This document shows, in pieces, positions 31,547 to 61,127 of a stretch of 64,000 nucleotides of DNA; the first letter of the stretch is position 1, and the number at the start of each line of letters is the position of its first letter. The position numbers and the translations under genes are program-made. The notes under the pieces were generated by a model. That model was not told the DNA's origin. It worked only from the letters and a program-made list of their open reading frames with translations, and ran no database searches. The stretch comes from Parcubacteria group bacterium. GTDB lineage: Bacteria > Patescibacteriota > Minisyncoccia > Moranbacterales > UBA2206. The stretch is from positions 35,493-99,492 of the forward strand of contig JBAZUU010000001.1 of NCBI GenBank assembly GCA_041661275.1, given 5' to 3'.

Positions 31547-31603
31547 AGTGATATGGCAACACTACTACAATATCACTGCAATACGCTCGCCTGTGGATAA
31601 CTT
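31547..31603 (-). promoter_or_regulatory. promoter/operator element D: agtgatat-N15-atatcact inverted repeat plus box AAGTTATCCACAG upstream of the DpnI-like gene
   Basis: ctgtggataactt at 31591-31603. Inverted repeat arms at 31547-31554 and 31570-31577. Confidence 0.5.
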
Positions 31604-32252
31604 AATTTTCCCTAAATCTATTATAAAACAACTTCTCGCCTTCTCCGACCACTTTAATTTCATCATCGATGATCGCAACTGCCTGTTGATCAGTAAGGGC
31701 AACTATAGGTAAATTGGTTTTTTTCGCGCCTTCCTGGATAGCTTCAGAAAAATCTTTGGTATAGTGCGCAGTGAGTAAAAAAGGCACAAGATTCAGACCA
31801 GTGAGATCTTTTAGTCCAACCACATCCCTATCCTGATTTTTCCAATGTGACATTTCTATAGTTGGGCAGGCAACATAGCTTCCGGCGCTGACGCCTACAT
31901 AAATTTTTCCTTCGTCCAGAAGTTTTCCAATAATTTTGTCAAAACCACTCTTCCTGGCCCAATCGAGAAGATAAAAAGAATTTCCGCCGTTTACATATAC
32001 AATATCGCAGACTGATAGTTTTTCATATAACGATTCTTCATTCTCTTTTTCCAGATAAACTTCGTCAATTTCCATGCCCATTTCTTTCAACTCATCCTTT
32101 GCTTCCTCGACATAATCCCTGATAACTTCCGGATAGGCGGCTGTAGGAATAAAGCCAACCTTAAGACCACGAGGGTCTTTATCTAAAAAATCCAAAAAAT
32201 ATTTTCTGGTTTCTTCAGGCAATCCGGCCGATGTTAGAAATAATTTTCTCAT
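31602..32252 (-). CDS. peptidase E-like (S51 family) dipeptidase
   Basis: VYVNGGNSFYLL and VGVSAGSYV are S51 signatures. Confidence 0.7.
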   Translation of the reverse strand: MRKLFLTSAGLPEETRKYFLDFLDKDPRGLKVGFIPTAAYPEVIRDYVEEAKDELKEMGMEIDEVYLEKENEESLYEKLSVCDIVYVNGGNSFYLLDWARKSGFDKIIGKLLDEGKIYVGVSAGSYVACPTIEMSHWKNQDRDVVGLKDLTGLNLVPFLLTAHYTKDFSEAIQEGAKKTNLPIVALTDQQAVAIIDDEIKVVGEGEKLFYNRFREN

Positions 32253-43307: not shown

Positions 43308-43449
43308 TGATTTTCTTATATGAATTTACTTTGTAAGGTGACCTTCTCTCTTGTTTACTCTGTTGCGGAATTTAACCGCTCACTTAGCTTACACTAACTT
43401 CATATAAGACTAAAAACGAGAAACGAATGCGAGAAAACTTACATTAATC

Positions 43450-43480
43450 CTAGTATACACTTTTGAGCCAAAATGTCAAC
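43450..43480 (-). promoter_or_regulatory. strong promoter (TTGACA-16-TGtTATACT) for the RRM gene, leaving an about 140-nt 5' UTR
   Basis: Read from the minus strand. Confidence 0.45.
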
Positions 43481-43514
43481 CCAAACAGCATAAATCCCCT
43501 GATATTGATTAACT

Positions 43515-43570
43515 AAAGCATTTATCCACAGTTTCCGATATTTGCCGGTTGACAGAAATCGGCTGCTCTG
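43515..43570 (+). promoter_or_regulatory. TTATCCACAG box plus consensus promoter TTGACA-17-TATACT
   Basis: Box at 43515-43524, -35 at 43542-43547, -10 at 43565-43570. Confidence 0.5.
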
Positions 43571-43589
43571 CTATACTGCCGGAGTAAGA

Positions 43590-43655
43590 TAAGATTATGA
43601 AAACAGCGAAACAAACATTCAAGCTAGTCTTTGGGATGTTGATTACCGTCATTGG
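43590..43655 (+). CDS. 21-aa hydrophobic peptide MKTAKQTFKLVFGMLITVIGR (type I toxin-like / membrane micropeptide candidate)
   Basis: GGAG sits 10 nt upstream of the ATG. A consensus promoter lies 20 nt upstream. A terminator hairpin follows at 43706-43732. Confidence 0.4.
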
Positions 43656-44774
43656 ACGATAAATTTTCGCTGGGAACATAGCATAAAAAAAATAGACAAA
43701 CGGATCCCGGCGAAAAGCGGGGTTTTTATTTTTCAAAGTTCCTTACAACACAAATTCTATTAGCCGGAGAGTGCGTAAAATTTAATTGTGCATTGTCCGG
43801 CAAACGGAATGATTTCCTTGAAAGAAAGATTCTTGAAAACTAATTTGCTTGAATTTTTGCCGACTCACTCGTTTAAATATGGCAGTGATGAATCAGGCTC
43901 TCCTAAAAGGAGAAAAAATAATTTTCAACAAACCGGTTTTCAATAAATTAATCAATCAAGGAAATCTTCTAGATGCCAATCTGCAAGAGGGGTAAGTCAT
44001 CCTACAACCGAAACGGATAGGGGGGAACATGAATCAGCCAAAGAAAGTGACCGAGAAAAGCTTGACCGGAAATAAAGGAAATCTCCTGAAATTTCCCGTT
44101 CCGATAGATGAACGGGAACCTGTCAAGCCACCGAGCTCTCATGAAATCAAGAGGGCTTTCTCTGAACTTTTTATGGCAAAAGCCGTCCAGACGACTTAAC
44201 TCAGTCCCATAAACTCCAAAAGAGTATGGGCATATCAACACAAGGGAGAGGTGCAATCCGCTTCTCCCTTCTCTCAAAAAATTTATTACTTTTTATATAA
44301 CCACCACACAAAAATGAATTTTATATTTCTCACAAATAGCATAATTATGATTATTAACCGACCAGCGTCGAGTTGATTTTGGTTTCCGAAAACTAATTAG
44401 GATCAACCCGACGCCAGTCGGTTTTTTTATTGATTAATAACAACATTATCCTCCTCTCCCTTCGGGAGAGGATGTCAGCCTAAATTTTTCTTAAAATTTT
44501 GGCTGACAGGAGAGGGAAAAGGAGATCTATCATGAAAAAACCGGAAGAAGAACAATGCAAGCTGTCAACTGAAAGCCAAAAGAGAATGCGAAGAATCGCT
44601 CAAAAAGAAGGCAAAAAAAGTGCGTGCGAACTTTGCATCCACAGGGAGAAATGTAAAAAATAAACCCCTAACTTTTTCCTAACATGGAATGAGTTGCAAG
44701 CCGAAAAGTAAAACATACTTTTTGGCACCAGCCGAGCTTACCCCCTTACAGCCCGGCCTTTTTATTGCACCTTA

Positions 44775-44803
44775 TTGACAAGATAAACTACATCTGCTAA
44801 ATT
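44775..44803 (+). promoter_or_regulatory. promoter TTGACA-17-TAAATT
   Basis: Read directly from the sequence. Confidence 0.4.
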
Positions 44804-44815
44804 AAGGGTACTGTT

Positions 44816-44890
44816 ATGAATCAAATTATAAACAACCTACTACTTCTATTGCTTAGCCCGCACGCGGTGGTTGTTTCGTTTCGTTCATAA
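44816..44890 (+). CDS. 24-aa hydrophobic peptide MNQIINNLLLLLLSPHAVVVSFRS (second micropeptide module)
   Basis: The promoter is directly upstream. A terminator (ccgcc-gtgtg-ggcgg plus T7) follows at 44918-44940. Confidence 0.35.
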   Translation: MNQIINNLLLLLLSPHAVVVSFRS

Positions 44891-45297
44891 GCAGTAGTTA
44901 AAACGAAGAAAAACATTCCGCCGTGTGGGCGGTTTTTTTATTTGCGGCTCCCTACATTATTCCCTTCTCCCTTTTAGGGAGAAGGTGGCTCGAGTCCCGC
45001 AATAGCGGACGAGAGACGGATGAGGGAAAACCATGGAATAGTGAGTTTATAAATTAAATTTTAATTTTTAAACTGGCTGTTTCAGAGGGTTCTTTCAACA
45101 ACTAACAGGAGAAAGAGTTATGATTTTTCTTAACGACATACCTCAAATAATCGAAGATTACGAAGCGGTAAGAAAGATTTACCGCAAAAGAGCAAAAAAA
45201 GAGCGGCTTCATCGATTTATCGTAAGATGCCGCATGTTTATTACTCGTTTTCCTTGGATTCACATTTAATTTCAAAGGTCAAAGAAAGGAAGGTACT

Positions 45298-45486
45298 ATG
45301 GACGCGACAGTTCTTTTAACGCAAGGCCTTAGACCACCGAAAGCAAGGGTTAAAGTCGATGAAAATCCCCCCTGCTGCAATTGTGGGGATAAAACACGCA
45401 GGGTCAACGATGCCCTGATCTGGTGTGAATCGTGCAACACAAAAATGAACCCGGCGGGTGAAGAAATAGAGGGATTTGTTTTTTAA
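45298..45486 (+). CDS. small zinc-ribbon protein (CCNCG...CESC)
   Basis: 62 aa. AGGAAGG RBS. A terminator hairpin follows. Confidence 0.4.
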   Translation: MDATVLLTQGLRPPKARVKVDENPPCCNCGDKTRRVNDALIWCESCNTKMNPAGEEIEGFVF

Positions 45487-45675
45487 ACAATACTGCAAAT
45501 CTTTCAAGAGGCGGCTGGATATCCACATCTCCAGACCGCCTTCTTTTTATCCCCCACTATTGATTTATCTGAAAGATTTGCTATAATCATCTTGTTATCT
45601 ATGTATAGTTCCGTAAGGAACTATTTTTCAGCCAGAGGCTGATCCGCCTATGGCGGAAAAAATTGAATATTACAA

Positions 45676-45750
45676 TCCGGCGTAGCTCAATGGTAGAGCA
45701 GTTGACTGTTAATCAATTGGTTGTAGGTTCGAGTCCTACCGCCGGAGCCA
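45676..45750 (+). tRNA. tRNA-Asn (anticodon GTT), CCA encoded
   Basis: Acceptor stem tccggcg/cgccgga. D-arm agctcaatggtagagc. Anticodon loop ctGTTaa. T-arm gtagg-ttcgagt-cctac. Confidence 0.85.
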
Positions 45751-47319
45751 CATGGGATTTGCGTCGCCGAAAGCGGCGCTTTTTCTTTTTCTGGAGCGGT
45801 TTTTAAGAGGTTCGAACGCGCTCAAATTTTCCTCTTCCGGATTTGAGACGAGAATCATCGGCAGAAGCGCGGAATCCGTGTTAATATCGACTTTTTTGTC
45901 TTTTAGGAGGAGGTTCGAACCTAAGGCGGATAAAATTATTTTTCGGGCATGCTGACCTCTCTCGGTGAAGGATTCCTGAGCGTCACTGGCAAATTTGAGA
46001 ACATTATCGGCCGTCTCCAGCCAGCTATCGACTCGGCTGTCCGTATCGTTCAAAAGTTCGTGCAGTTTCGCTTTTTCCTGATTGGTCTTTGATTTTTTGC
46101 GCGTAAATTCTTCTTCGCTGATTTCTCCGGCCGCGCGCATATCGATAAGCGCGTCGAGTTTCTGGACGCAGGCTTCGTAGTTTTTTTGTTGGTTGGCGAG
46201 AATGGCGTTTCGATCGTCAGCCTCTCGTCCGTTTTCATTTTGCAGCCACTTCATCGCCCAGTCATGAAATTCCTGCGGCGGTCGCACTTGAGACAAGGTG
46301 CTTTTAACTTGTCTTTCCAGTTCTTTCACTTCGATGCATTTCTGACTGCACGGACCTTTTCTTTTGGTGCAATGATAGTAAGTGTAATTATGAATATTCC
46401 CGTTCTTATTTTTCTTAACTTTATTTTCCGCCGTCACCATAGCTCCGCATTCGCCGCAACGGATCATGCCGGTATAAGCGAAAGTATGCGTTTCCGGTTT
46501 CGGTTTACTGCCTCGGCCGAGAAGCGCCTGGACGCGATCATATTCGTCGCGGGTGATCATCGGTTCGTGTTTGCCCTTGTGCCAATTCCCACTGCCTTGC
46601 GGCCATTCAAACCAGCCGTAATAAAATGGATTATATAGCACCCGATAGAATCCGCTTCGCGCCAGCTTTTTCAATCCCCATTTCTCGACAGCAATTTCAT
46701 GAACTCTCGGCGCCGTATAGGTGCCACTTAAAATCATGTCGAACATCTTTCGGACAAGCGGAAACATTTTCGAGTCTTTGCGAATTGTTTTAAAGCCTTT
46801 CTGTTTGTCAGGCGTATTCATATATCCGATCGGCGCCGGGCCCGGATGCCAACCGAGCTCCACCTTGCGTCGGAGCCCTCGTTTCACATCGATGCCTTTG
46901 TTATCATTTTCCAGCTTGGCCTGGCTGCAAAGAAGATTGAGCAGAAATTTATCGTTGGGCGTATTTTTGAAAGGCTGGCCGGGTGTTTTTATTTCCTGCA
47001 GTTTATTTTGATCCATTAAATAAACCAGATAACCAGTGTCAACAGAATTTCTGGAAAGCCGGTTGGGATGCCAAGCTAGAATTCCGTTGGCTTCGCCTTT
47101 CTCAATCCGTTTTATCATTTCATTGAAAATCTCCCGACCCGGCGCTTTGGCCGAATATGATTCTTCAAGCAGACTCACGATTTGGAGTTTTTCACGTCTG
47201 GCCAGCGCTTCCAGTTCACCCTTTTGCGAATCGATTGAAAGCACCTGGCGGTCTTCTTGCTCCGATGACTTTCGAGCGTAGAGAAAATATTTAAGTTTTG
47301 ATTGCACTTCCTGGTTCAT
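45736..47319 (-). CDS. large serine recombinase (resolvase catalytic domain, recombinase domain, Zn ribbon); 3' end overlaps the tRNA-Asn 3' end
   Basis: N-terminal YARKSSEQEDRQVLSIDSQ holds the catalytic serine. Length 527 aa. The stop codon lies inside the tRNA T-arm/acceptor. Confidence 0.85.
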   Translation of the reverse strand: MNQEVQSKLKYFLYARKSSEQEDRQVLSIDSQKGELEALARREKLQIVSLLEESYSAKAPGREIFNEMIKRIEKGEANGILAWHPNRLSRNSVDTGYLVYLMDQNKLQEIKTPGQPFKNTPNDKFLLNLLCSQAKLENDNKGIDVKRGLRRKVELGWHPGPAPIGYMNTPDKQKGFKTIRKDSKMFPLVRKMFDMILSGTYTAPRVHEIAVEKWGLKKLARSGFYRVLYNPFYYGWFEWPQGSGNWHKGKHEPMITRDEYDRVQALLGRGSKPKPETHTFAYTGMIRCGECGAMVTAENKVKKNKNGNIHNYTYYHCTKRKGPCSQKCIEVKELERQVKSTLSQVRPPQEFHDWAMKWLQNENGREADDRNAILANQQKNYEACVQKLDALIDMRAAGEISEEEFTRKKSKTNQEKAKLHELLNDTDSRVDSWLETADNVLKFASDAQESFTERGQHARKIILSALGSNLLLKDKKVDINTDSALLPMILVSNPEEENLSAFEPLKNRSRKRKSAAFGDANPMWLRR

Positions 47320-47322
47320 AGT

Positions 47323-48090
47323 TTAGTTATTTTTTAAAAGCGACAGTGTATTTTCATATTGCAGCAAGTTTCCGCTATTGGAGATAAACATGCGCACGGT
47401 CGGATATTTTGGTTCCGCTTCGAGCTCGACCGGAAGTTTATAATCCCGATCTTCATAGAGCCATTCCCAGCGATCATTCTTATCTTCTTTAGAAATTGGC
47501 TGTAATGTAAATTTATCTTTTACGGAAGAATATGTTTCGGGCATGGAGCGTTCGAGATATTTTTCGCCGATAGTTTTAATTTGTTCATTGCTTATCAAGG
47601 GAGAAAATAAGGCGCTTTTTGAATCATCGCAAGTTGATCTTCCTTTTGGATAAACCAGCCCAATGTTTACCACTTCGTGTGTTTTTGGATATACTTCGAA
47701 TCTGTAGATTTCGCAGGTATCAGCTACAAATTCTTTTGATTCATAAATGTTTACAGTCCGTTGCCATTCTTCGGGTGTGGTTATGTGACTGCCGCCACCT
47801 TTTGGAAGCGGTTCGCTTTTTCCGATTGTAAAATTCGATGGCGCTTGCGAACTTATAAAAGTCACCGGATAATTTTCATCGTCCATAAAATTGGCAATAA
47901 CTGTTTCGTCTTGCTTTAAGTCTTCCGGTGATATTATTGTCTCTTTTTGTTCCTGCTTCTGGGCTCCGGAATTGCCCGAAAGCGGTGTTTTCTTTGTTTC
48001 GAGGTTATAAACCCCGATGATCGCCCCAATGGCCGCCAGAACGGCAATTACGGCAATAACTTTTGTGTTTTTTGTCATACGCTTGTTCAT
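47323..48090 (-). CDS. secreted/membrane-anchored hypothetical protein
   Basis: N-terminal TM/signal IAVIAVLAAIGAIIG. Length 255 aa. Confidence 0.45.
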   Translation of the reverse strand: MNKRMTKNTKVIAVIAVLAAIGAIIGVYNLETKKTPLSGNSGAQKQEQKETIISPEDLKQDETVIANFMDDENYPVTFISSQAPSNFTIGKSEPLPKGGGSHITTPEEWQRTVNIYESKEFVADTCEIYRFEVYPKTHEVVNIGLVYPKGRSTCDDSKSALFSPLISNEQIKTIGEKYLERSMPETYSSVKDKFTLQPISKEDKNDRWEWLYEDRDYKLPVELEAEPKYPTVRMFISNSGNLLQYENTLSLLKNN

Positions 48091-48254
48091 TAATTATTAA
48101 TTCTCTACCCAAGCACAACATGGACCCAAAGCCGAAAGAAGTCAAATGCTTAAATTTCCTTTATTTTACTAGTTTTTTATAGGTCTTGTGTTTATTCTAC
48201 CTTAAATTCCGATGAAGTTTCAGTGAAGTGTTGATGAAGTGTTTTTTCTCAAAA

Positions 48255-48370
48255 TTTACCCCAATTTTACCCCAGTTTCACCCCGATTAATTTTCTCATA
48301 TTTTATCTCTCATTTTAATTGTATTCCTCTTAAAATCCACCCAAGTTTTGCCCAAGAGTTGCCCAACCCT
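48255..48370. repeat. iteron-like direct repeats (TT(T)ACCCCA x3; (A/T)TGCCCAA x3) at about 10-11 bp periodicity
   Basis: Read directly from the sequence. Adjacent to an HTH Rep-like ORF. Confidence 0.4.
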
Positions 48371-48483
48371 ATTTTGCTCCATTTTTTCAAAAAAATTGGT
48401 GTATTATTTATACTTTCTTATTATTTTTTTCTTATTGACTGCTTCTTATTATGGGGCTCATGGTGGTCTCCGGTCGGGGTTCT

Positions 48484-48897
48484 CTATGGACTTTGACCAG
48501 GGTTCACTATGAACCCTGGGCTTTTGAAGAGTTGGGGGTTGATCCGGTAAATCGTTCCGGATCGATGGCCGTGTTTGGAAGTGTTGGTTTTCGTTTCGAT
48601 CAGTTCCAGCTGCAGCAATTTTTTTCTGACACGCTTGCAAGTTGATTGGCTGAATCCGTAGGCGGCAAAACCGCGTTCTTTTTCTCCGTGAGTCATGAAC
48701 ATCTTGTCAGTATGCCAAAACCAGCCGTCTTTGGCGGCGTAGCGATTGGAAAGATGACAAAGCACCAGAAAAAAATCACGCTCGGCGTGCGTCAATGAAC
48801 GACGTATTTTTGCATCGTCGAAGGGAGCGTGCGGAACTAAGAAGAAGTTTACATTTTTAGCGGGTGTTTTCGGGCTCGATTGATTCATATGGTTCAC
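48484..48897 (-). CDS. HTH-containing protein, possible replication initiator / transcriptional regulator
   Basis: 137 aa. FSQSTCKRVRKKLLQLELIE is an HTH-like segment. Confidence 0.35.
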   Translation of the reverse strand: MNHMNQSSPKTPAKNVNFFLVPHAPFDDAKIRRSLTHAERDFFLVLCHLSNRYAAKDGWFWHTDKMFMTHGEKERGFAAYGFSQSTCKRVRKKLLQLELIETKTNTSKHGHRSGTIYRINPQLFKSPGFIVNPGQSP

Positions 48898-49165
48898 TAA
48901 TTATTTTGGCTACTTTTTCACTAATGGCAGTTTCGACTTGTCGGCCGACTGCCTGATCGATGGGATGAAAAATATTGATATTTTGATTGGTTACTTTTCG
49001 AGTTGGATAGACCAAGCGATATCCGCCGTCTCTTCGACTGAAAACAGCGACTGATCCCATCCAAAATTTTTCGTCCAACACAAACGAAACGAACCCGAGG
49101 AGGCCGTCCTTGGGTTTCACCGGATAAAATTGGATTTCGCTAATTTTAGTTTGATTGGTATTCAT
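48857..49165 (-). CDS. SpoVG-family nucleic-acid-binding protein
   Basis: ISEIQFYPVK...GFVSFVLDEKFWMGSVAVFSRRDGGYRLVYPTRK....IFHPIDQAVGRQVETAI aligns with conserved SpoVG blocks. Confidence 0.65.
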   Translation of the reverse strand: MNTNQTKISEIQFYPVKPKDGLLGFVSFVLDEKFWMGSVAVFSRRDGGYRLVYPTRKVTNQNINIFHPIDQAVGRQVETAISEKVAKIISEPYESIEPENTR

Positions 49166-49770
49166 AATTATTCGCTAAGTTTTCCCCTAAATCGTCGATT
49201 GAAGGTTCACCCATATAGGTGATTTTGTAGAGTTTAAAAAGATTATTGGCCCGCGAGCTCGCTTCCTCATCGGAAAGATGCACGCCGTAGCGTTTTTCAT
49301 AGAGTCTCTTAAATTCTTCAATGGCTTCTTGAGGTAACATAAAAAGGCTGGCCCAAACGGGACTAGCCTTTATATTTCTTCTCAAGTTCTAATCAGTTCA
49401 ATGCGAGGCACCTTAGTTTGCGTTGGGAAACAAAAAAACGAGACTACAACTTATGCCATCAAAACCCGACCGACAATTCGGTCAAATGTTTTTGATAACA
49501 GAAGTCATAGCCCCGTCTCGTTTAGTTCCGAACAATCGGAACGCCGTCAGGCAAACTTTCTGGATTTGTGATTTTATTTTAGCAAATCATGTCATGCTGT
49601 CAACTCTCTCTCTGTCATATGCCTCGATTTTGGAAAATAAAGGGCTTGTTGATGGGAAAGCTGAAAGGATAAAGGCTTTAATTGAGAAATAAAAAAAACG
49701 GCTGCGAGATATGCCGTAAGGCAAATTTCTCGCAACCGTCTGTTTCTTGAATAGAGGCTAGTGATTCTTC

Positions 49771-50355
49771 TTACTCGTAGTCAACCCTGCCATCCACTTC
49801 GCGGACCGGACGACCCTGATTCTCGATCTCATACTGGTCACGACCAAATCGTGCGATCTGCGGACCTTGCTCATCTTCCTCATGACAGGCATCGCAGATG
49901 CTTTCTCCGTCAAAAGTTTGATGCAGCTCGTCCACTGGTACGGATTTCTTGCACCAATCGCAGGCAATCATTGACACAGATTTGCTAATCTCGCCCTTCA
50001 TTAATCGATATGCCCGAATAGTCCCATTGATTAAAATCGAAGGGTGAGCCTTTATCCAGTTCTGAATCCACGTTTTGAAATAATACACAAGGTTATCATC
50101 CCATTGGCCATCAATTTCAGGGCAACCGAACTGTCGAAGAACAGTCAGCTCATATTTCCCGATGCACGGCTTAATTGCCAATGCGTAGGTGTAACTTTCT
50201 CCTGGAAGATCTCGCGCTTCTGTCCACGCAAGTGCGAAGACATAGTGTTTTGATTTCAGATATCCTTGAGCTTCAAATGGATCATCGAGCAAATGAAACA
50301 AAAGGGGCGGTAAGGACGAGCTGCCAATTTTGGAAACAAATTCTTCAAAGTTCAT
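49771..50355 (-). CDS. hypothetical protein with C-terminal Zn-ribbon (CDWC...CDAC)
   Basis: 194-aa ORF. Confidence 0.4.
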   Translation of the reverse strand: MNFEEFVSKIGSSSLPPLLFHLLDDPFEAQGYLKSKHYVFALAWTEARDLPGESYTYALAIKPCIGKYELTVLRQFGCPEIDGQWDDNLVYYFKTWIQNWIKAHPSILINGTIRAYRLMKGEISKSVSMIACDWCKKSVPVDELHQTFDGESICDACHEEDEQGPQIARFGRDQYEIENQGRPVREVDGRVDYE

Positions 50356-50484
50356 TTTGCATCTCCTTTTTCTTGTCGACTTTATTGCCCATTCGACAAG
50401 ATAAGCCAGGGCGGGCTAATTAAATTAGAAAAAAACAGGCCTCTTCTACTAACGTCGCCAGTCGATGCTGACTTGCTATATTAG

Positions 50485-50545
50485 CACAAAACCAGCCCTG
50501 GGTCAATGGCTGGCTGATTTTAAGAATATTTTGCTTTATATAAGC
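50485..50545. repeat. 61-nt intergenic repeat copy E1 (terminator-like hairpin ccagcc..ggctgg plus conserved tail)
   Basis: About 85% identical to 52740-52800, in the same orientation. Confidence 0.6.
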
Positions 50546-50560
50546 TGTTTTACTAACGGA

Positions 50561-50953
50561 TTATTTTGAATAATATTCTTCCTTGGCTTCTTCTGGTTCT
50601 TCAAGAGTGTTATAATCGACAGTTATTTCTTCCCCCGCTGGAATATCGCGCAAAGCATAGTAATTGTAATTTTTATGATAAGTATTTGGTGTTTTGGAAT
50701 GGTTAATATACCAGCCGATTTCCATATGGCCAAAATTTCGCGGACAACTTAGCATATCGCCCCTGTCTGCGCAAAATTGTCTAAAAAATTCAGGAACATC
50801 TTCTTTCTTTCTGGTAACTGCTATTCTTCCTTCGTCTTCTTCACGGAACAATCGCAAATACGTTCCTTTTTTAATATCGTGAGCGGCAAAAACACCAACG
50901 CCATGCTCGGTTGGTTTTAAAACAAATGAAAATTCTGTCGTTTTTTGATTCAT
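50561..50953 (-). CDS. SET-domain protein (putative protein lysine methyltransferase)
   Basis: GVGVFA..., NHSKTPN (NHSCxPN-like) and EEITVDY (ELxxDY-like). Start placed at the internal Met (MNQKTTEF). Confidence 0.65.
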   Translation of the reverse strand: MNQKTTEFSFVLKPTEHGVGVFAAHDIKKGTYLRLFREEDEGRIAVTRKKEDVPEFFRQFCADRGDMLSCPRNFGHMEIGWYINHSKTPNTYHKNYNYYALRDIPAGEEITVDYNTLEEPEEAKEEYYSK

Positions 50954-50987
50954 TTTTTTAGTAGTATCTCTTAAGTTAATCTTCGAG

Positions 50988-51809
50988 CTAAGCGTGATGA
51001 TTATTTTTGTCCCTGGTAAATACATAATAATACTGTTTCTCCAAAACCGGCCCCAATTCTTTTTTGAATTGAATAAGCCCCGGGTCATGACAGCCTGTCC
51101 CCAGTGAAAATAAATCGCGGTCAGAAAACAACTTGGCTCGTTCATGGTGAAGAAATCTGCTCAGCCCCTTGTAATCATAATTCGCCTTTAGGTGAAGACC
51201 TGCCCAGTTGTGATCTGAATGACCAACGCCCCAAGCAAATCCGGCTAATTTACCATCAATTTCTACGTATATTTGCTTGATGTCATATTTTTCCAGGTTT
51301 TCCAAACAGAAGAAAAAGAACTCAGTGCTTTCTTTTTCAAATAAATCTGACGATCTTTCTTTTTGCCCTTCCCAAAGATTATAAAATTCAGTAAGTTTGG
51401 TTTTGGAATAATTGTTTAAAATATTATAATCATAGCTTTTGTTAAATTGATTTACCCGGTTTTTCATTTTGCTTTTAGGATCAAGAAAGCCGCTGGTTTT
51501 ATAATAATATTCCGTTTCAGTCGGATTTTGATTGGCAATTTCTATATCTTCTTTTTTAATCTTTTTTACCTCTTCCTCGGTTATCATGGACATGGAAGCC
51601 ATTGCCCAATTATCTTTGTTTTTAGGCAGAAAAAGAGAAGGAAAATCGTGGAGATAAGAAGGATCCTGGGTGACGATCAGGTCTTCGCCATTGCGTTTAA
51701 AAGTATAAGCACAAAAATCAAGATAAAGAGGCAATGATACATAGGAAAAAGGCAAATCATTTATTAGCTTGATATGTTTTTTCGAATCAAATTTTTCCAT
51801 GGTTTTCAA
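50988..51809 (-). CDS. hypothetical protein (possible GNAT-fold DUF2156-like domain)
   Basis: 273-aa ORF. Weak resemblance only. Confidence 0.35.
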   Translation of the reverse strand: MKTMEKFDSKKHIKLINDLPFSYVSLPLYLDFCAYTFKRNGEDLIVTQDPSYLHDFPSLFLPKNKDNWAMASMSMITEEEVKKIKKEDIEIANQNPTETEYYYKTSGFLDPKSKMKNRVNQFNKSYDYNILNNYSKTKLTEFYNLWEGQKERSSDLFEKESTEFFFFCLENLEKYDIKQIYVEIDGKLAGFAWGVGHSDHNWAGLHLKANYDYKGLSRFLHHERAKLFSDRDLFSLGTGCHDPGLIQFKKELGPVLEKQYYYVFTRDKNNHHA

Positions 51810-51897
51810 TAAATTTCACTATCATTATTATACACTATACTACAAAAAAAGAACCGCTGATGTCACGTGGGCATCAGCGGTAAGTTCGAGGTTACGA

Positions 51898-52665
51898 TCA
51901 TATAGAAAGGATGTTTGCCAGAGGAGACCATGTTTTTTTGGATTTGATCTCTTCTTCGTGAAAAACTCCACTCTTCCAGAAAACTTTGAAGGCTTTTCCT
52001 CCTTTCCTGAAATTTATAACTCGATAGACTTGGTCGACTATTTCCAGGGCGGAATAATCGCCAAGAGCAACGCCAATGTCGCCATATTCTCGCAGCATGC
52101 TTTTGAAAGCCGGCCTACGCCATTCACCCTCCGATTCGTAATGTGGGCAAAGAGCAAAAGGGAGAAATCCCAAGCCATCTACTTTGATGGGCATCCAGTT
52201 GCTTGGATCCCTGATGCGCAGAGAATCAGAGACACTCCATTTGGACCAGCAGATTGCTCCGGCAGAAAGCCCGGAAAGGACAGCGCCCCGTTCTCCGGCT
52301 TCGCGAAGCATTTCGCCGATGCCTCGCTTTTCCCATTCGCACATCATGAGAGCTGTGTCACCGCCGCCCACATAGATAATATCCGCCCGATTGATCTTTT
52401 TTTGGATCTGTCTGTCGGTCAGTCCTCCTTTCGAAAGTTTGAGGTAATCAAGCTTGCATCCCAAGCGCGTTCTATAGACCCTGTAAATTCCGTGGCAATA
52501 ATCGACATTATCACCGCTGGCCGTCGGGATAAAAAGAAAATTAGGCGAACGCGATTTTGCTATTCTCACCCTAGCCAGTTTGACGATCTCTCTATCTACC
52601 GATAGTGTTTGCGGCAGTCGACAAGGGATAGATATTTCTCCTCCACCAATAGCTACGATTTGCAT
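51898..52665 (-). CDS. S51 peptidase (cyanophycinase/peptidase E-like), GC-rich gene
   Basis: IYVGGGDTALMM and LSGLSAGAICW are S51 motifs. Confidence 0.65.
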   Translation of the reverse strand: MQIVAIGGGEISIPCRLPQTLSVDREIVKLARVRIAKSRSPNFLFIPTASGDNVDYCHGIYRVYRTRLGCKLDYLKLSKGGLTDRQIQKKINRADIIYVGGGDTALMMCEWEKRGIGEMLREAGERGAVLSGLSAGAICWSKWSVSDSLRIRDPSNWMPIKVDGLGFLPFALCPHYESEGEWRRPAFKSMLREYGDIGVALGDYSALEIVDQVYRVINFRKGGKAFKVFWKSGVFHEEEIKSKKTWSPLANILSI

Positions 52666-52739
52666 GATTATAGCTCCCGTGTATGAGTCTGTATAAAAGA
52701 ACGCGATTCTGTCAAATAAATGTTGACATACTATACTAT

Positions 52740-52800
52740 CACAAAACCAGCCCTAGGTCAATGGCTGGTTAGTTTTGGTAGTATTTTGCCCTATATAAGC
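52740..52800. repeat. 61-nt intergenic repeat copy E2
   Basis: See E1. Confidence 0.6.
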
Positions 52801-52804
52801 CTAT

Positions 52805-53575
52805 TTATGGATGGAACTCCATTGCCCATTTATCCTTTCCTTTCCAACTGTCAAAAACTTTGCCAAATCCCTCTTTTATCGCTAATTCTTCAACCATTTT
52901 TAGGAGTTCTTGCTGGGTTTCCAAATCGGCATTCTTCAATACTTTGGAAATTTTGTCTAACAGTTCTTTATTGCTTATTGGCAACTTTTCCAGCGGAGCA
53001 ACTTCTAGTTCTTTTGGCAGGTAGCCGTAAAATGGAGCCAGCCTTTTGTGCAAAGCAAAGAGAGTAATAATCAGATTAGGAATGGAGCTGGCAGATTCAA
53101 TGTGAGCACCCAAAAGATTACCGCTCCGAATACACTTCACTGACCGAAAAACACCGTTCAGATAGTCGTCTATTCTTTCTCCTGTAAATTTCTTCCACTC
53201 GTCTTCAGGTATGGTTCCTTTGGAATCAATCAAATTTTGAATTTCACCCGTTTTATCAATTATCGCCTTAACTCTCGCGAAATCATATCTATCCCAAGCA
53301 AAATCCGTTCCCCATTCGGCATACTCTCTAAATTCAGACAATGATTGAACTGATAAATCAATATCGGGATTGTCGATATTGGAATACTTGGTTTTATATT
53401 CCTCGGCGACTTCATCTTTTACAATTATTTTTATATCATAGTCGGACTTCCCGTTTTCAAATCCTTTTCCCCGCGAACCCTTGAGAAAAAGCCCGATGAT
53501 ATTGTCGTCATTTTTTGCTTCTTCTAAAATTTGATTGTATAAATTTTCCTTTTCCATAAGTTTTATTTTACGCAA
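52805..53575 (-). CDS. nucleotidyltransferase resembling aminoglycoside 6-adenylyltransferase (ANT(6)/AadK-like)
   Basis: LFLKGSRGKGFENGKSDYDIKIIVKD parallels the AadK N-terminal NTase block. Length 256 aa. Confidence 0.55.
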   Translation of the reverse strand: MRKIKLMEKENLYNQILEEAKNDDNIIGLFLKGSRGKGFENGKSDYDIKIIVKDEVAEEYKTKYSNIDNPDIDLSVQSLSEFREYAEWGTDFAWDRYDFARVKAIIDKTGEIQNLIDSKGTIPEDEWKKFTGERIDDYLNGVFRSVKCIRSGNLLGAHIESASSIPNLIITLFALHKRLAPFYGYLPKELEVAPLEKLPISNKELLDKISKVLKNADLETQQELLKMVEELAIKEGFGKVFDSWKGKDKWAMEFHP

Positions 53576-54360
53576 ACATAAAATATAGGCGACTTATAAC
53601 AATTGAAGTCTTTTGACATCGACCCCTCCATCGCCTCGGCGTCTTCCTTGGATAATTCTCCCATCCTTTTTCTCATTACTAATGTAAATCCCGATTTTGC
53701 GATTATTTCTTCCATTTCCTTTTGGCTGGTGAAATGAATAAATTGATATCTTTTCTTCCCATCAACACGATAATTTCTTTCAAAAAACCAATCGCCAAAT
53801 TCGAGCTCTTGAAATTTAAATCCAAGAGGTTTTAAAATATAAAACTTAAGCCATTGCTTGACCCAGAGATACAGATAACTGCCGGAGTAATATCTTTGAT
53901 GGGCGGTGAGGATAAAATGGGATCCGGGTTTCAATACCCGATGGATTTCTTTCAAGGCCTTCAAACGATTGGAATGTCCTGGAATTTGCACCCAGCCATT
54001 GTTGGCAAATATCGCCCCATCAAAATAGTTATCTTCAAACTCCAATTTAGTTGCGTCTCCCACTCTGAAATCCACACTGGTTCCTTTTTCCAGTGCTACC
54101 CTTTTTGCTGTTTCAATCATGCCTGGGGTCAGATCAACTCCAATGACATCAAATCCCTTTTCGGATAAGACAAAGGCAGTCCTTCCTGAACCACAACCGA
54201 TATCAAGAATGTGGGAATTAGGTTTGAAATATTTTTTGATTAAAATATCTTCACTTTTCCATAATCCCTTTTTGGCAATTCTCAAATATTGCTCCTGGGT
54301 ATTCTTAGACCCGAATTCATCGATGCTTTCTTTTTTAATTTTTTCTATTGAGTTTTTCAT
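53563..54360 (-). CDS. class I SAM-dependent methyltransferase
   Basis: HILDIGCGSGRTAFVLSEKGFDVIGVDLTPGMIE is motif I/II. Confidence 0.75.
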   Translation of the reverse strand: MKNSIEKIKKESIDEFGSKNTQEQYLRIAKKGLWKSEDILIKKYFKPNSHILDIGCGSGRTAFVLSEKGFDVIGVDLTPGMIETAKRVALEKGTSVDFRVGDATKLEFEDNYFDGAIFANNGWVQIPGHSNRLKALKEIHRVLKPGSHFILTAHQRYYSGSYLYLWVKQWLKFYILKPLGFKFQELEFGDWFFERNYRVDGKKRYQFIHFTSQKEMEEIIAKSGFTLVMRKRMGELSKEDAEAMEGSMSKDFNCYKSPIFYVCVK

Positions 54361-55841
54361 AGTTCTCTAATATTAAGTGATAATATATTTTTCTCTGCTT
54401 CAAGAATATCTTTCATCTGGAAACTTTCTTCGCCCCACAATAGAACTTCCACTGGGCCGATAAAATAATTTCGTTGAAGCATAAAGTCTTTTAAAACGTT
54501 CCTCTCCTTCTGTATTAGTGGACGAATAGATTCGTATGCCTGAATAAAAGATTTGATTAGGCTATAACTCTTATTTTTCTTTAATATGGACCAAGCCACA
54601 ACTGCGACATCGCTGATCAAATAAGAATAATGGAGGTCGTCGAAGTCCAAAATACCAACCAATTTTTCACCGACGAATAGTGTATTCATAATGGTGAAAT
54701 CCGAATGAATATAAGCGGCAGGCCATTGTCCATAAATGGGCTTAAAATCTTTTGCTCTTTCTAAAAATTTAATCACAGACTTATTTTTTAATTTCGAAAA
54801 ATCAATTTTTGCCAATAGTTCGTTTTCATATTTTGACACTGATTCGTTTCCATTCTTCTGTTTGATATATTTCTGACTAACCAAATGCATTTTAGCAAGT
54901 GCTATACCAAATTCTCTGGCGGTTGATTCAGAATATTTCTCGATATGTTGGCCTCCAATAAATTCCATTAGCAGACTTTTCCAAGCAACATCATTAATAT
55001 TAGTAACATTAGCTGCCTTCCCCAGATTATTAAAAATTATTTGAGGAACGGGCAATCCTTCTTCTCTAAGAAAATTGACGAATCTCGCCTCTTCTTCAAT
55101 CCACTCCAACGGTTCATCAATATTATTCGGATAAATTCTTAAAACATACTTTTTATCGGAAACTATTTTGATGCTAGTGTTTTCAACGCCATATGGAATG
55201 ACTTCCATTGAAAAGTTACTGATATTCCAATTGGTCAACATCAAACCAATATTTTCCTTCGTCGGATTTATTTGATTTTCAGGAGAAATTTTTACAATCG
55301 GCCGCGTCTGAAACTCCTCTTTGGTCAATTCCATCTTCACTGTGCCGCTTAAAATCCATTCGCCGTTATGAAAAACAGTCCTGTCGTTATTTATTAAGTC
55401 GGCTTGTTTAAACCCCATTTTTTTATAAAACCCAATCGCTCTTTCATGTAGTTCACTAGTATCAAGCGTAACATTATCCACGTTTAATGTCCTGAAAGCA
55501 TAATCCAAAGTTAGTCTCGTCGCTTCACTTGCTACGCCTGTTCCCCAATAGCTTTTATTTAAAATAAAAACACTAAATTCACTCTCATTTCCTTCTCTTA
55601 TGCTTGATAAGGAAGTATACCCGATAAAATTATCTTCCTTATCATAAATCTCAAAAACTGGCCCACTTTCAATTTCATCAAGCAAAGACTTAAGTTCATC
55701 AATATTTTTTAGTTCCAGGGCTTGTTTAGCAAAACTGAAATATTGTACCACTTCCAATTCTTTAAACCATTTCAAAAGTAAAGGATAATTTTCCTCTGCC
55801 AACCCATCATTGAGATAAACTTTTTCTCCCTGCAATGTCAT
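54357..55841 (-). CDS. fusion protein: N-terminal GNAT acetyltransferase (RimJ/L-like) plus C-terminal APH/homoserine-kinase-II-like phosphotransferase
   Basis: GNAT segment YWGTGVASEA...GFYKKMGF. Kinase segment HSDFTIMN (HxDxxxxN) and ILDFDD (DFD). Confidence 0.65.
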   Translation of the reverse strand: MTLQGEKVYLNDGLAEENYPLLLKWFKELEVVQYFSFAKQALELKNIDELKSLLDEIESGPVFEIYDKEDNFIGYTSLSSIREGNESEFSVFILNKSYWGTGVASEATRLTLDYAFRTLNVDNVTLDTSELHERAIGFYKKMGFKQADLINNDRTVFHNGEWILSGTVKMELTKEEFQTRPIVKISPENQINPTKENIGLMLTNWNISNFSMEVIPYGVENTSIKIVSDKKYVLRIYPNNIDEPLEWIEEEARFVNFLREEGLPVPQIIFNNLGKAANVTNINDVAWKSLLMEFIGGQHIEKYSESTAREFGIALAKMHLVSQKYIKQKNGNESVSKYENELLAKIDFSKLKNKSVIKFLERAKDFKPIYGQWPAAYIHSDFTIMNTLFVGEKLVGILDFDDLHYSYLISDVAVVAWSILKKNKSYSLIKSFIQAYESIRPLIQKERNVLKDFMLQRNYFIGPVEVLLWGEESFQMKDILEAEKNILSLNIREL

Positions 55842-55844
55842 TCC

Positions 55845-56435
55845 CTATATCAAAACCATATTCCCATCTTCGACGAAGATAGCTTGGTCATCAGTTAGTT
55901 TGATTACTGATCCTTCTTTTCGTTTTGCTTTAAACTCCTCAATCATTTTCTCTTCTATCGGAGTATAGTGCGGAGATACGATATATTTAACCAGATTAAG
56001 ACCAGCCAAATCATTGAGGTTAATGTCGTTTATATCACCGATTCCCGCCACTTCAATATCCGGACCGGGAATAATGCTTCCGGCACTGACACCCAGATAA
56101 AATTTCTCCCGTTTTACCGCGTTGATCAAGACCTTGTCCATACCAGTTTTTCTCATTCGATCAAGGATATAAAAAGTGTTGCCACCGCATACATAGTAAA
56201 TATCATACTCTTTCAGATTTACAAAATTATTTTCTTCCGAAATGTTTATTTTGTCATATCGCAATCCGATTTCCCCCAGCTCTTTATCATATTGCTCGAG
56301 CCACTGCCAATCACTTTCTTCTCTGATAGTAAAAATCAAACAAGCTTTCTTGTCACTAAGCGTATCGAATTGTGAAATGAAAAAATCTCGTACTTTTTTA
56401 TTTTCTAATCCTGTTGAGGTTAGTAATAATTTCAT
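55845..56435 (-). CDS. S51 peptidase E-like protein
   Basis: YYVCGGNTFYIL and LGVSAGSII. Confidence 0.65.
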   Translation of the reverse strand: MKLLLTSTGLENKKVRDFFISQFDTLSDKKACLIFTIREESDWQWLEQYDKELGEIGLRYDKINISEENNFVNLKEYDIYYVCGGNTFYILDRMRKTGMDKVLINAVKREKFYLGVSAGSIIPGPDIEVAGIGDINDINLNDLAGLNLVKYIVSPHYTPIEEKMIEEFKAKRKEGSVIKLTDDQAIFVEDGNMVLI

Positions 56436-56459
56436 ATTTTATAATTTTTTATTTTAAAA

Positions 56460-57389
56460 CTATTTCTCTATTATGTTTTTGGTCTTTTTGCAAGTTACTA
56501 TAGTATATGGAATTTGCCAAGCATATGGCTCTTCGTGATGAGTAAGTACGCCTTGCAATCCTTCAATGTTTTGCCGAATATACTCTTTCGCTTCTTTCAT
56601 CTGTTCTTCTGGGGCGTTGATACGCCGAACAAAGAATTCATCGAATGTTTCATAAAGAGTAGGGCCATCTGCGATTTCTTCAATTTTATCAAATATTTTT
56701 CTGTGCAAATCTATCCCCTCTTCTTTTCCACAAAAATTTACCCTTCTTTTCGCAACATCAAACAGTCCATTAAAGCAATTCGCTTGTTCTTGAGTGTCAT
56801 AAGAACAAAATTGGCTAACTAGAATTCCGCCGGGTTTCAATATTCGTTTAATTTCTTCCAATATCTTAGCTTGATATTTGGGCTCTACATACTGTAAAAC
56901 GCTACGCAAAATAACTAAATCGGCGGTTTCACTAGCTAATGGCGTTTCCATTAGACTAGCTTCAATTTTTTCAGCCTGTACTGAGCTTTGCTTCATTGCT
57001 ACGGCATTTGTGTCAATCATAACCAATCTAGCATCAGAACCATTTTTTCTAAATTTTTCACGCACATAATTTCCAAGTGTCCCCTGGCTCGATCCCGCAT
57101 CAACTATTGTCGCATTTTCCCTATCATATATTTCATTTGGAATATGTCGAGCAAAAATTTCACAATTTTCCTCACTTCCAAAAAAACCTTGGTATAACTC
57201 CTCCAAAGCTCTTGCCTTCCCCTCTCCTGCTCTTGTCGCCAATTCTATATCCTGTTTCATTCCAGATTCAACATTTTCACTCTCTTGCTTTTTTATAGAT
57301 GATTCTTTTTTGTGTTCGAAATTCATATTTTGATTATACACAGACGCTTCATTTTTTCCGATATCTTCAGATACAGGAAATTGACTCAC
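56460..57389 (-). CDS. class I SAM-dependent methyltransferase
   Basis: VDAGSSQGTL...ILKPGGILV. Confidence 0.65.
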   Translation of the reverse strand: MSQFPVSEDIGKNEASVYNQNMNFEHKKESSIKKQESENVESGMKQDIELATRAGEGKARALEELYQGFFGSEENCEIFARHIPNEIYDRENATIVDAGSSQGTLGNYVREKFRKNGSDARLVMIDTNAVAMKQSSVQAEKIEASLMETPLASETADLVILRSVLQYVEPKYQAKILEEIKRILKPGGILVSQFCSYDTQEQANCFNGLFDVAKRRVNFCGKEEGIDLHRKIFDKIEEIADGPTLYETFDEFFVRRINAPEEQMKEAKEYIRQNIEGLQGVLTHHEEPYAWQIPYTIVTCKKTKNIIEK

Positions 57390-57443
57390 TGCAATTTAAT
57401 TTATGGATAATTTAAATATCGTACCAATCTCGAGGAAATATTG

Positions 57444-58322
57444 TCAGGACTGAGATAATATCATTTTTAGTTTCTTTATTATCCTAGTCATGCCTTCTGA
57501 TTTTTTATTTTTTTGATAAAACCAAAACCAATTCATCATCGCTATAATAGTATCCTCCTTAATCTGGAAAAATAAATCATCATTTTTGGCACCATAATAA
57601 TTCAGAATATCTTTCAAAAACTGATCATTACTTTTTTTATTAAAATCAACCAAATCCATAAAATCCATCGCCGGTATGCCGAGCCCCGCTTCTGCCCAAT
57701 CCAAGATGCCGGTAATTATTTTCTTATCCGGATCCCAAAGAATGTTGTTGAAATATAAATCGCCGTGTATAATTGTTGCTGGATTTTCAAAATTACTAGG
57801 ATTATTGGCAATAGCTTTCAGCTTGGCGTTGAGAATCTTAAGCTCATCAGCACTCAAGTATTGTGCTATCAACTTGGGACAAGATCTATAATCACTTTTT
57901 CTCATCACTAAGTATCCAGTGTCGAAATTAATTTTTTTGTCTTTAAATCCGTGGAGTGCTTTTAAAAACAAGCCGAGCTGTTTTGCGATTTTGAGCCTTT
58001 CTTTCGGAGCAAGTTTTTCGATGTCAGATGGGCGAGGGTGTTTTCCAGGTATCTTTTTATAACCAATAAAACCATCGCCAAGGTATTTTGGTGCCGGCAC
58101 TGCCAGAGGAGACACCTTAGAAAATGAGACTAAGAAATCCAATCTTTTTTCCATTTTTTCTTTAGCGTCGTCGTTTCTGGGAAATCGAAAAATCCATTTT
58201 TCATTAACTTCAATAATCAGACTTTCCGTGCCTCTATTTACTGCCTTGTATGAATTGATCTTGAGACCTGTAGCCATTCTTATCTCTTCGATTCTTGCGG
58301 CGATTGATTTTTGCTTTGTCAT
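57444..58322 (-). CDS. aminoglycoside/choline-kinase-family phosphotransferase (APH-like)
   Basis: IIHGDLYFNNILW (HGDxxxxN) and GILDWAEAG. Confidence 0.7.
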   Translation of the reverse strand: MTKQKSIAARIEEIRMATGLKINSYKAVNRGTESLIIEVNEKWIFRFPRNDDAKEKMEKRLDFLVSFSKVSPLAVPAPKYLGDGFIGYKKIPGKHPRPSDIEKLAPKERLKIAKQLGLFLKALHGFKDKKINFDTGYLVMRKSDYRSCPKLIAQYLSADELKILNAKLKAIANNPSNFENPATIIHGDLYFNNILWDPDKKIITGILDWAEAGLGIPAMDFMDLVDFNKKSNDQFLKDILNYYGAKNDDLFFQIKEDTIIAMMNWFWFYQKNKKSEGMTRIIKKLKMILSQS

Positions 58323-58384
58323 AGTTTATCTAAGTTGATCTATGACCATTCTACCATAAACCGGCCATAATCCTATATGCGTAT

Positions 58385-60509: not shown

Positions 60510-61127
60510 ATGAACAAAATACCAACAAAAGGTGAATATTTAGAGGTCTTATTAAGATCTCCCAAAACCGTCTTTTCTACAAAAGATGCGGCTTTATTAT
60601 GGAACGAGACCGATAATGCCGTGGTTACTGACCGATTAAAAAAATATGTTAAAGCTGGAAAGTTAGTTCGACCATATCGCGGTTTGTATGCCAAAGATAA
60701 AAATTATAATCGCTTTGAAATTGCAACGCGAATCTATACTCCTTCTTACATCAGTTTCGAAACTGTTTTGACGAGAGCTGGAATCAACTTTCAATTCTAT
60801 AGCAATATTTTTGTGGCTTCATACGTAACTCGAGATATTCAAGCTGGCGATCAGTCGATTTCATTTGTCCGAATGAAAGACTATGTTTTAAGTAACACGG
60901 TCGGCATTGAACATTCGGACGGAATTGCCATGGCTACCAAAGAGCGCGCGTTCTTGGACAGAATTTATGTGAGCAAAGATTATCATTTTGATAATTTAAA
61001 CGCCTTGGATTGGGACAAGGTGTTTGAGATTTTGCCGATCTATAACAATAAGCGAATGGAAAAGAAGGTTGATGAGTATTTCGATCACTACAAAAGCGAT
61101 CAACCAATTAAACCAGAAAAAATATGA
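60510..61127 (+). CDS. AbiEi-like antitoxin/transcriptional regulator (type IV TA, abortive infection)
   Basis: N-terminal wHTH-like region. 4-nt overlap with the downstream AbiEii gene. Confidence 0.6.
   Translation: MNKIPTKGEYLEVLLRSPKTVFSTKDAALLWNETDNAVVTDRLKKYVKAGKLVRPYRGLYAKDKNYNRFEIATRIYTPSYISFETVLTRAGINFQFYSNIFVASYVTRDIQAGDQSISFVRMKDYVLSNTVGIEHSDGIAMATKERAFLDRIYVSKDYHFDNLNALDWDKVFEILPIYNNKRMEKKVDEYFDHYKSDQPIKPEKI

Follow-up and report, generated by a model that had tools for sequence, protein, structure and literature searches.

The tRNA-Asn gene of a Parcubacteria group bacterium (assembly GCA_041661275.1, contig JBAZUU010000001.1, positions 35,493–99,492) is overlapped at its 3' end by the gene of a large serine recombinase (LSR). 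We refer to this 64,000-nt stretch at its full length as the window and give all coordinates as window positions. In all likelihood, the block GGAGC at 45744–45748 is the attL junction of a genomic island that a large serine integrase inserted into the 3' acceptor end of tRNA-Asn. According to this explanation, the integrase would read the T-loop, T-stem and acceptor 3' strand of the tRNA as the left half of its bacterial attachment site (attB) and cut at a 2-bp core inside GGAGC, most likely G71–A72. The DNA 3' of the core is now the element's, as comparison with relatives shows, and comprises the CCA end, a putative tRNA terminator and the integrase gene, whose open reading frame (ORF) runs antisense through the terminator and the attachment (att) arm to stop inside the tRNA. 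In relatives, newcomers of the same kind are seen to integrate at the tRNA::element junction and to displace the older elements outward, which yields tandem arrays. The far junction would carry only the 2–5-nt core, without a tRNA repeat, and probably lies beyond the window.

The Integrase Gene Ends Inside tRNA-Asn

Both ARAGORN and Rfam (75.9 bits) place tRNA-Asn(GTT) at 45676–45750 on the plus strand, with an encoded CCA and without an intron. A sigma-70-like promoter (TTGATT-16-TATAAT, 10 of 12 matches) lies 5' of the gene in host DNA (45560–45587, plus strand), in a region conserved in the syntenic relative L278. The sole long ORF adjoining the tRNA is on the minus strand (45736–47319) and codes for the 527-aa LSR. 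It overlaps the tRNA antisense by 15 nt, and its final codons (TGG CTC CGG CGG TAG) are the reverse complement of CTACCGCCGGAGCCA. A first-pass annotation of the sequence had read the last LSR codons as the complement of the tRNA T-arm and acceptor and placed the stop codon at 45736. The tRNA searches and the ORF agree with that description: the stop is truly inside the tRNA, in the T-stem, and not upstream of it.

The product of 45736–47319 is a large serine recombinase, or serine integrase, with recombination activity predicted from its sequence. We base this assignment on Pfam matches to the Resolvase (PF00239, residues 12–154, E = 1.1e-18), Recombinase (PF07508, 27.5 bits against a cut-off of 21.1) and Zn_ribbon_recom (PF13408, 34.9 bits) domains, on a possible coiled-coil region at residues 373–440 (where Pfam gives only SHOCT and DUF4164 matches), on the match to a PHROG integrase family (E = 9e-64), and on the alignment of residues 11–470 to SPbeta integrase structures, a remote similarity (E of about 1e-8). 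The protein also matches the A118 RD-ZD structure 4kis. In 31 aligned sequences, the YxRxS motif (Y14, R16 and the serine nucleophile S18) and the zinc-ribbon cysteines (C288, C291, C317 and C324) are invariant, and the LSR is full length with every invariant residue. None of the 30 proteins from the interval 36.9–63.6 kb that we compared with Pfam matched Phage_integrase. Furthermore, IMG/VR holds no close relative of the LSR clade, only distant LSRs that are 41–48% identical over the N-terminal part. Six IMG/VR viral contigs have two copies each of a distant LSR relative (L091/L095, L100/L111, L118/L140, L099/L142, L126/L145 and L155/L156).

Host and Element Sequences Meet Within GGAGC

Comparisons from both sides bracket the junction. 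On the host side, locus L278 is collinear with window positions 23018–45748 and its homology ends directly after GGAGC, where a different LSR element with a 582-aa LSR begins. Locus L281 is likewise syntenic and carries an element different from the window's at the same tRNA (580-aa LSR). On the element side, related elements that do not lie beside a tRNA (L004, L081–L083, L229, L212, L256 and L272) match the window only from 45744 (GGAGCCA...); L229, for example, is 88% identical over 45744–49604. Because host homology ends at 45748 and element homology starts at 45744, the comparisons place the exchange inside the crossover block GGAGC (45744–45748, plus strand), which corresponds to tRNA positions 70–74. 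On the plus strand, the tRNA-side sequence running up to the junction is CCGCCGGA, and the element side reads GCCACATGGG from 45747 onward. These results bear out the first-pass claim of an integrated-element boundary with the element at higher coordinates. Consistent with it, none of the relatives shows the same downstream genes without a recombinase.

Locus L004 has a tandem arrangement with one fully bounded element. The array begins with tRNA-Asn; next come an element of 8.6 kb, whose own 573-aa LSR overlaps this tRNA, the sequence ...ATGTGGAGCCACATGGG, and a second LSR element with 94% identity to that of L003. At its two junctions, the inner element has GGAGC as the only common sequence, without a tRNA 3' direct repeat of 15 nt or more, and the sequence common to tandem and replacement junctions across relatives is limited to the same block. 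Together with the L004 array, eleven unique junctions without a tRNA indicate stacking at the tRNA site. As the junction partners of the L004 element share only GGAGC, no 25-nt tRNA repeat is to be expected in the window. The "classic" attachment architecture with a 15–25 nt repeat of the tRNA end, proposed from the first reading of the sequence, is therefore not what we found: the enzyme is of the serine type and the common sequence is at most 5 nt (GGAGC). A search for ggttcgagtcctaccgccggagcca returned no second copy of the tRNA 3' 25-mer in the window with up to three mismatches, and direct repeats sought between 40 and 64 kb gave nothing relevant. Such a search would fail even for a genuine element, because the far junction should carry no recognizable tRNA repeat.

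Other loci retain only pieces of an integrase gene. In L216 (3148–3375), tRNA-Asn is followed by only ~150 nt of LSR tail plus the terminator. In L253 (2371–2749), an element arm precedes ~380 nt of the LSR end. Both loci keep the att arm and terminator. These scar pieces look as if they were retained because the tRNA needs them.

At the locus of an 89%-identical relative (P0249), represented by a gene list, genes for a Pif1 helicase, an AEP primase fragment and a SEC-C protein occupy the tRNA-Asn side of the same synteny block (2069–5213) and no recombinase was called. This locus may hold a different or decayed element at the same hotspot.

Anatomy of the Predicted Attachment Site

To describe the att arms, we use the 62 junctions of elements that have the window's type of conserved LSR module (E1-type), collected from a metagenome pattern scan and from genome loci. 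About half of the metagenome matches were chance hits with no terminator signature and were removed by hand. The 42 tRNA-type junctions yielded 31 unique arms, and the 20 non-tRNA junctions yielded 11 unique element-derived arms. With x = 0 set at the base preceding GAGCCA, the T-loop GTTC lies at x = −17 in every unique tRNA arm (31/31). Of the 11 element-derived arms, 7 have a GTTC at x = −22. An inner TCC(A/T) occupies x = −10 in both arm types alike. When the arms are compared with the mirror image of the conserved right arm (GAGCCAyrTGGGATTwGC), each arm type gives its best symmetry about a center between x = 1 and x = 2, at the dinucleotide GA (45745–45746). This symmetry makes GA (G71–A72) the most likely central dinucleotide within GGAGC.

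The putative left half-site of attB (B arm) spans 45727–45744 on the plus strand and includes the T-loop GTTCGAG (45727–45733), TCCTA (45734–45738) and the acceptor 3' strand. Across the junction, the predicted element-derived P' half-site GCCACATGGGATTTGC.... (45747–45770, plus strand) is conserved in 35 unique junction sequences, and its opposite strand encodes the ..ANPMW of the LSR tail. By the rule drawn from the structure of the LI integrase bound to attP, the zinc-ribbon motif occupies positions 16–24 in attP and 11–19 in attB (PMC3783163). The outer motifs of our arms fall at positions 18–24 (element arms) and 13–19 (tRNA arms), the same 5-bp shift as in the LI rule. Circumstantially, this argues well for the tRNA arm being a genuine attB half-site and for the other arms being attP half-sites. 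By the same analogy, the T-loop GTTC would be the motif read by the zinc-ribbon domain.

The Element Supplies the End of the tRNA Gene

Positions 1 to about 70 of tRNA-Asn are host-derived by these comparisons, and the encoded CCA is element-derived because conserved element sequence starts inside GGAGC. If the core is GA, the discriminator G would also come from the element. In L004, the inner element swapped ...GGAGCCA for ...GGAGCAT, so a genomically encoded CCA can be lost or gained through integration.

Sixteen nt farther on lies the hairpin of an element-borne intrinsic terminator (45761–45791, plus strand; hairpin 45761–45779 plus T-run), which lies inside the C-terminal codons of the LSR. 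Across 17 distinct elements, 97.5% of the cells of the hairpin alignment are paired and three of the seven pairs show compensatory changes; none of 500 shuffles was as good, and no register shift comes close. The T-run follows the hairpin on the tRNA-sense strand, and there is none on the LSR strand. We propose that the hairpin terminates tRNA-Asn transcription in place of the displaced native terminator. Both the terminator and the att arm fall within the final ~20 LSR codons, which explains why this tail is conserved at the DNA level and varies in protein sequence. Excision would alter no more of the LSR than its two terminal residues (RR) and the stop codon.

Related Recombinases Face tRNA Genes Across Patescibacteria

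A scan of species-representative genomes (one genome per species) recovered at least 592 LSR relatives. We kept 80 loci, re-ran ARAGORN on them and extended each LSR ORF to its stop codon. A tRNA lay downstream of the LSR ORF in 56 of the 80 loci, and the first such tRNA was antisense in all of them (56/56), overlapping the ORF end in 19 by 12–113 nt. By comparison, the tRNAs upstream of the LSR in the same loci showed no strand bias (3 versus 4). The association between LSRs and tRNAs is far beyond chance. In some loci that seemed to be without a tRNA, ARAGORN overlooked a tRNA-Asn gene whose anticodon loop is interrupted by a group I intron.

The protein tails carry the imprint of the tRNA. 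The 30 aligned homologues (50–96% identity) end in ..ANPxWLR.., often followed by ..DSNxxP. The WLR..DSN tail is what CCA (TGG = Trp), acceptor stem and T-loop (GATTCGAAC = DSN) encode when read antisense, and its frame is constant. The closest relatives are at tRNA-Asn or tRNA-Gln and more distant ones at Glu or Leu tRNAs; furthermore, closely related LSRs occupy different tRNAs. We tentatively propose, as a possibility to which we give somewhat less than an even chance, that a large Patescibacteria-wide clade of serine integrases evolved to read the near-universal T-loop/acceptor end of tRNAs as attB. In this model, the T-loop GTTCGA would be the zinc-ribbon motif, crossover would take place at nt 71–72, and the element would rewrite the discriminator, CCA and terminator. 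If so, such integrases would be the main island-building machinery of these reduced genomes and would represent natural, repeat-free, tRNA-directed integrases with a target specificity that varies among Asn, Gln, Glu, Leu and other tRNAs.

The intron of L178 (9416–9605, ~190 nt) matches Rfam Intron_gpI with 70 bits, and intron-bearing tRNA-Asn genes are also present in L281, L002, L005, L167, L175, L180, L182, L188, L189 and L224. We also identified a second LSR family (L028–L080) of ~420 aa that is ~46% identical over the N-terminal 345 residues. In this family, the antisense tRNA (Ser, Trp, Gln, His, Asn and others) is always 0.2–9 kb downstream, and several of these tRNAs have a common 3' trailer, ..CGTGATAGCACGAGA... 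It looks like another tRNA-targeting family, with the integrase gene away from the junction.

Conserved Module, Cargo, and Extent of the Island

The LSR belongs to a five-gene backbone that is conserved at the nucleotide level among relatives from 45744 to about 49603 (3.9 kb). The first-pass annotation had reported a switch to accessory functions beyond the recombinase, and all the features it listed are present: iteron-like repeats, SpoVG-like and SET proteins, methyltransferases, APH/GNAT proteins and AbiEi/AbiEii. Next to the LSR gene, a variable member of the module (47323–48090, minus strand; homologues in 20 element loci) codes for a 255-aa protein with an N-terminal hydrophobic segment and without a family match. 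Iteron-like short direct repeats (three copies of TTTACCCCA and two of CCACCCAAGTTTTGC; 48244–48400) follow in a stretch whose flanking DNA is conserved among elements. They adjoin a Rep-like gene (48484–48897, minus strand) for a 137-aa protein that is found in 31 element loci and has weak PHROG matches (E = 5e-5 to 5e-4) to DnaD-like or replication-initiator winged-helix proteins. We consider it a candidate replication or regulatory protein, and the module may have a replication function.

The last two module genes are also on the minus strand. The product of 48857–49165 is a 102-aa SpoVG-like protein (Pfam SpoVG, 30.1 bits against a cut-off of 29.6; 25 element loci). The 79-aa protein of 49146–49385 is present in 26 element loci, including elements whose LSRs are only ~50% identical, and ranks with the most broadly conserved accessory proteins that the module encodes; we speculate that it could be a directionality factor or regulator. 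A near-consensus promoter for the module operon (TTGACA-16-TG-TAAAAT, 11 of 12 matches) lies at 49576–49603 on the minus strand, and module homology ends at 49603/49604. Near-identical module genes are present in many genomes, which implies recent spread.

Beyond the module is a variable cargo block (49771–60208, minus strand). It encodes a 194-aa protein, a SET protein, a DUF2156-like protein, two S51 peptidases, a nucleotidyltransferase, two methyltransferases, a GNAT-APH fusion, an APH and a UvrD/GajB-like helicase. An AbiEi/AbiEii toxin-antitoxin or abortive-infection pair (60510–61819, plus strand; PADLOC E = 4e-57 and 2e-76) comes next, followed on the same strand by genes for a 462-aa protein without an assigned role and a 118-aa protein (61878–63588, the latter at 63232–63588). 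The last two genes likely belong to the island; the 118-aa gene is also found past the L081 module. AbiEi/AbiEii homologues lie immediately past the modules of L175, L178 and L218, and an AbiEii gene is in the same place in L081. The LSR remnant of L253 forms a fusion with a gene homologous to that of the window's UvrD-like helicase. Conjugation genes were not seen in the element, and protein scans of 47.3–64 kb recognized no capsid, tail, terminase or lysis genes.

Large units move as a whole. Loci L006 (tRNA-Gln) and L230 (tRNA-Asn) have at least 10.9 kb in common between unrelated host flanks, and L178 and L218 have 8.9 kb in common. Across L005, L006 and L230, and across L178 and L218, units of 9–12 kb move together between different tRNAs and hosts. 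Cargo differs between modules that are 88–94% identical. Because large units move together and cargo genes recur beside modules elsewhere, the island probably reaches at least ~63.6 kb and extends past the window. Contigs of the same strain from other samples break at 49535/49557 and near 64 kb and, being identical as far as they go, add no information. The heptamer CTGTGGA just past the module promoter was considered as a far junction and rejected: its spacing is variable (17–21 nt), the expected inner motif is absent, and its GA is followed by A, C or T, never by the G expected of a native tRNA remnant.

An 88-nt intergenic direct repeat of the cargo block (50465–50552 and 52720–52807, 80% identity) has each copy just upstream of a minus-strand gene cluster and may be a duplicated promoter or regulatory region. 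At the right end, the 118-aa gene makes up a cassette (63232–64000) with the next gene, which codes for ~200 aa and continues beyond the window edge. The cassette is 85% DNA-identical to L276 9705–10386, where the context is unrelated and IS110 fragments lie on its flanks. More than 340 homologues of the ~200-aa product, with 60–90% identity, are spread across Patescibacteria, and it has no family assignment.

Alternative Explanations

Several observations weigh against an attL junction at 45744–45748 that opens a large island. No far junction (attR) was detected in the window with the pattern GTTC-N19-GA or with a weight matrix of the 11 element-derived arms; the best matches were in coding DNA or left of the tRNA, and none right of the LSR was credible. 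No excised circular form or attP was observed, and no directionality factor was identified. An empty site was not found either, as every syntenic relative recovered has an LSR element at tRNA-Asn (two other homologue loci, L277 and L280, are not syntenic); we therefore infer insertion from replacement and not from presence versus absence. At the att site, the symmetry signal is modest (0.33 and 0.39 versus a background of about 0.25), the P' arm has no clear GTTC-type outer motif, and the comparisons place the crossover dinucleotide only to within GGAGC. Finally, homology with L229 (88%) and L081 (80–82%) ends sharply at 49603/4 and gives way to unrelated DNA. This last point would also be explained if the mobile element were only the 3.86-kb module (45744–49604) and the genes beyond were host flexible genome or older unrelated insertions, and a ~4-kb element seems present at such a junction in L256. 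We consider this unlikely. The module ends at the −35 box of a promoter and not at an att-like arm, and the CTGTGGA beyond it has inconsistent spacing and never the discriminator G. Furthermore, units of 9–12 kb co-move, and AbiE and helicase genes recur next to modules elsewhere. It is similarly improbable that the locus is a decayed, immobile remnant in which the LSR and junction were kept for supplying the tRNA 3' end and terminator. Scars do exist elsewhere, in L216 (~150 nt) and L253 (380 nt), and the missing attR would fit a remnant, but the LSR is full length with its invariant residues all present, the module operon promoter is near-consensus and near-identical module genes are found in many genomes.

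The remaining alternatives concern the nature of the recombinase and of its overlap with the tRNA. A prophage with the LSR as its phage integrase would agree with the PHROG match and with the distant LSRs in IMG/VR contigs; the lack of recognizable virion, packaging or lysis genes between 47.3 and 64 kb and of any close relative of the LSR clade in IMG/VR makes it very unlikely. A tyrosine-type tRNA island bounded by a 15–25 nt direct repeat of the tRNA 3' end has the same outward layout, with an integrase gene adjoining the tRNA and accessory genes beyond. It is even harder to maintain, since the sole recombinase is of the serine type, the 25-mer is not repeated in the window even with three mismatches, and tandem and replacement junctions have only GGAGC in common. 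We give almost no credence to a coincidental overlap, in which a host recombinase gene merely runs into the tRNA. The poor conservation of the last ~20 LSR residues as protein would allow it, but the first tRNA downstream is antisense in 56 of 56 loci, the ORF keeps one frame with respect to CCA, closely related LSRs sit at different tRNAs and host synteny breaks exactly at the junction. Integration by the serine integrase into the tRNA-Asn acceptor end is the explanation we favor.

Other Features of the Window

The ~2.3 kb between an RRM-protein gene and the tRNA promoter (43308–45560) has only tiny ORFs (44–62 aa, one of them zinc-ribbon-like), and every one of them precedes a terminator-like hairpin. 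The corresponding interval measures ~0.3 kb in L226 and 1.5 kb in L084; in L084, a GIY-YIG gene lies within it. Farther left, 15 kb from tRNA-Asn, the interval 28000–32000 has a GC content of 0.34 versus about 0.40 and may be a second accessory region. It contains a 256-aa gene (30663–31433) with 67–70% DNA identity to an L081 stretch with a DpnI-family gene inside an LSR island, and also to DNA 1.7 kb past the L216 LSR scar. A tmRNA gene at 11591–11985 (153 bits; tag peptide ANLLTKAKTVFAQAFTSNFAYATA) is unrelated to the island.

Comparison With Known Systems

Genomic islands at tRNA genes are textbook knowledge, but nearly all of them are ascribed to tyrosine integrases, and it is the flanking partial-tRNA repeats that reveal them. 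With a serine integrase that leaves no repeat, repeat-based island finders and inspection by eye would both miss the far end. The same arrangement recurs in related recombinases across Patescibacteria, a group thought to have few mobile elements; at least 592 species-level genomes hold a relative. In the literature covered by our searches, no paper describes serine integrases with tRNA 3' ends as their targets in Patescibacteria, which is weak evidence of absence. The arms described here provide testable attB/attP predictions for a new integrase group that would land in conserved tRNA sequence and keep the gene intact.

The closest enzymatic parallel is with phage-type large serine integrases (A118/LI, SPbeta SprA, phiC31 and Bxb1). 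They have the same set of resolvase, recombinase and zinc-ribbon domains, their att sites are likewise short, with a core of the 2-bp type and free of long repeats, and their outer motif is 5 bp nearer the center in attB than in attP, as it appears to be here. Unlike them, the integrase we describe would target a tRNA 3' end and not a protein-coding or intergenic site, has its P' arm and the tRNA terminator inside its own tail codons, and is carried by non-phage islands of Patescibacteria. The CcrAB enzymes of SCCmec are large serine recombinases that insert at the extreme 3' end of rlmH (orfX), preserve the gene and accumulate elements in tandem. The 3'-end insertion that preserves a housekeeping gene and the tandem stacking are common to both systems. 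SCCmec differs in that its target is rlmH and not a tRNA, its recombinase genes are internal and do not overlap the junction, and its host phylum is unrelated.

Tycheposons, which have integration and replication modules of their own, are also cargo elements at tRNA genes in which newcomers push older elements outward to form variable islands. The great majority use tyrosine recombinases (910 of 937), and they leave partial-tRNA direct repeats (bioRxiv 10.1101/2020.12.28.424599), whereas the island at tRNA-Asn has a serine integrase and no recognizable repeat. In a survey of streptococcal integrative and conjugative elements (ICEs), all of the tRNA-targeting integrases were of the tyrosine type (PMC4701971). 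The rumA-targeting serine integrases of streptococcal ICEs resemble the LSR in having the att site in the 3' end of the integrase gene, the last codons exchanged and very short repeats (PMC4701971). However, these ICEs are conjugative and disrupt or alter a protein-coding gene; at tRNA-Asn, the tRNA is restored and the only change to the integrase would be its terminal RR and stop codon.

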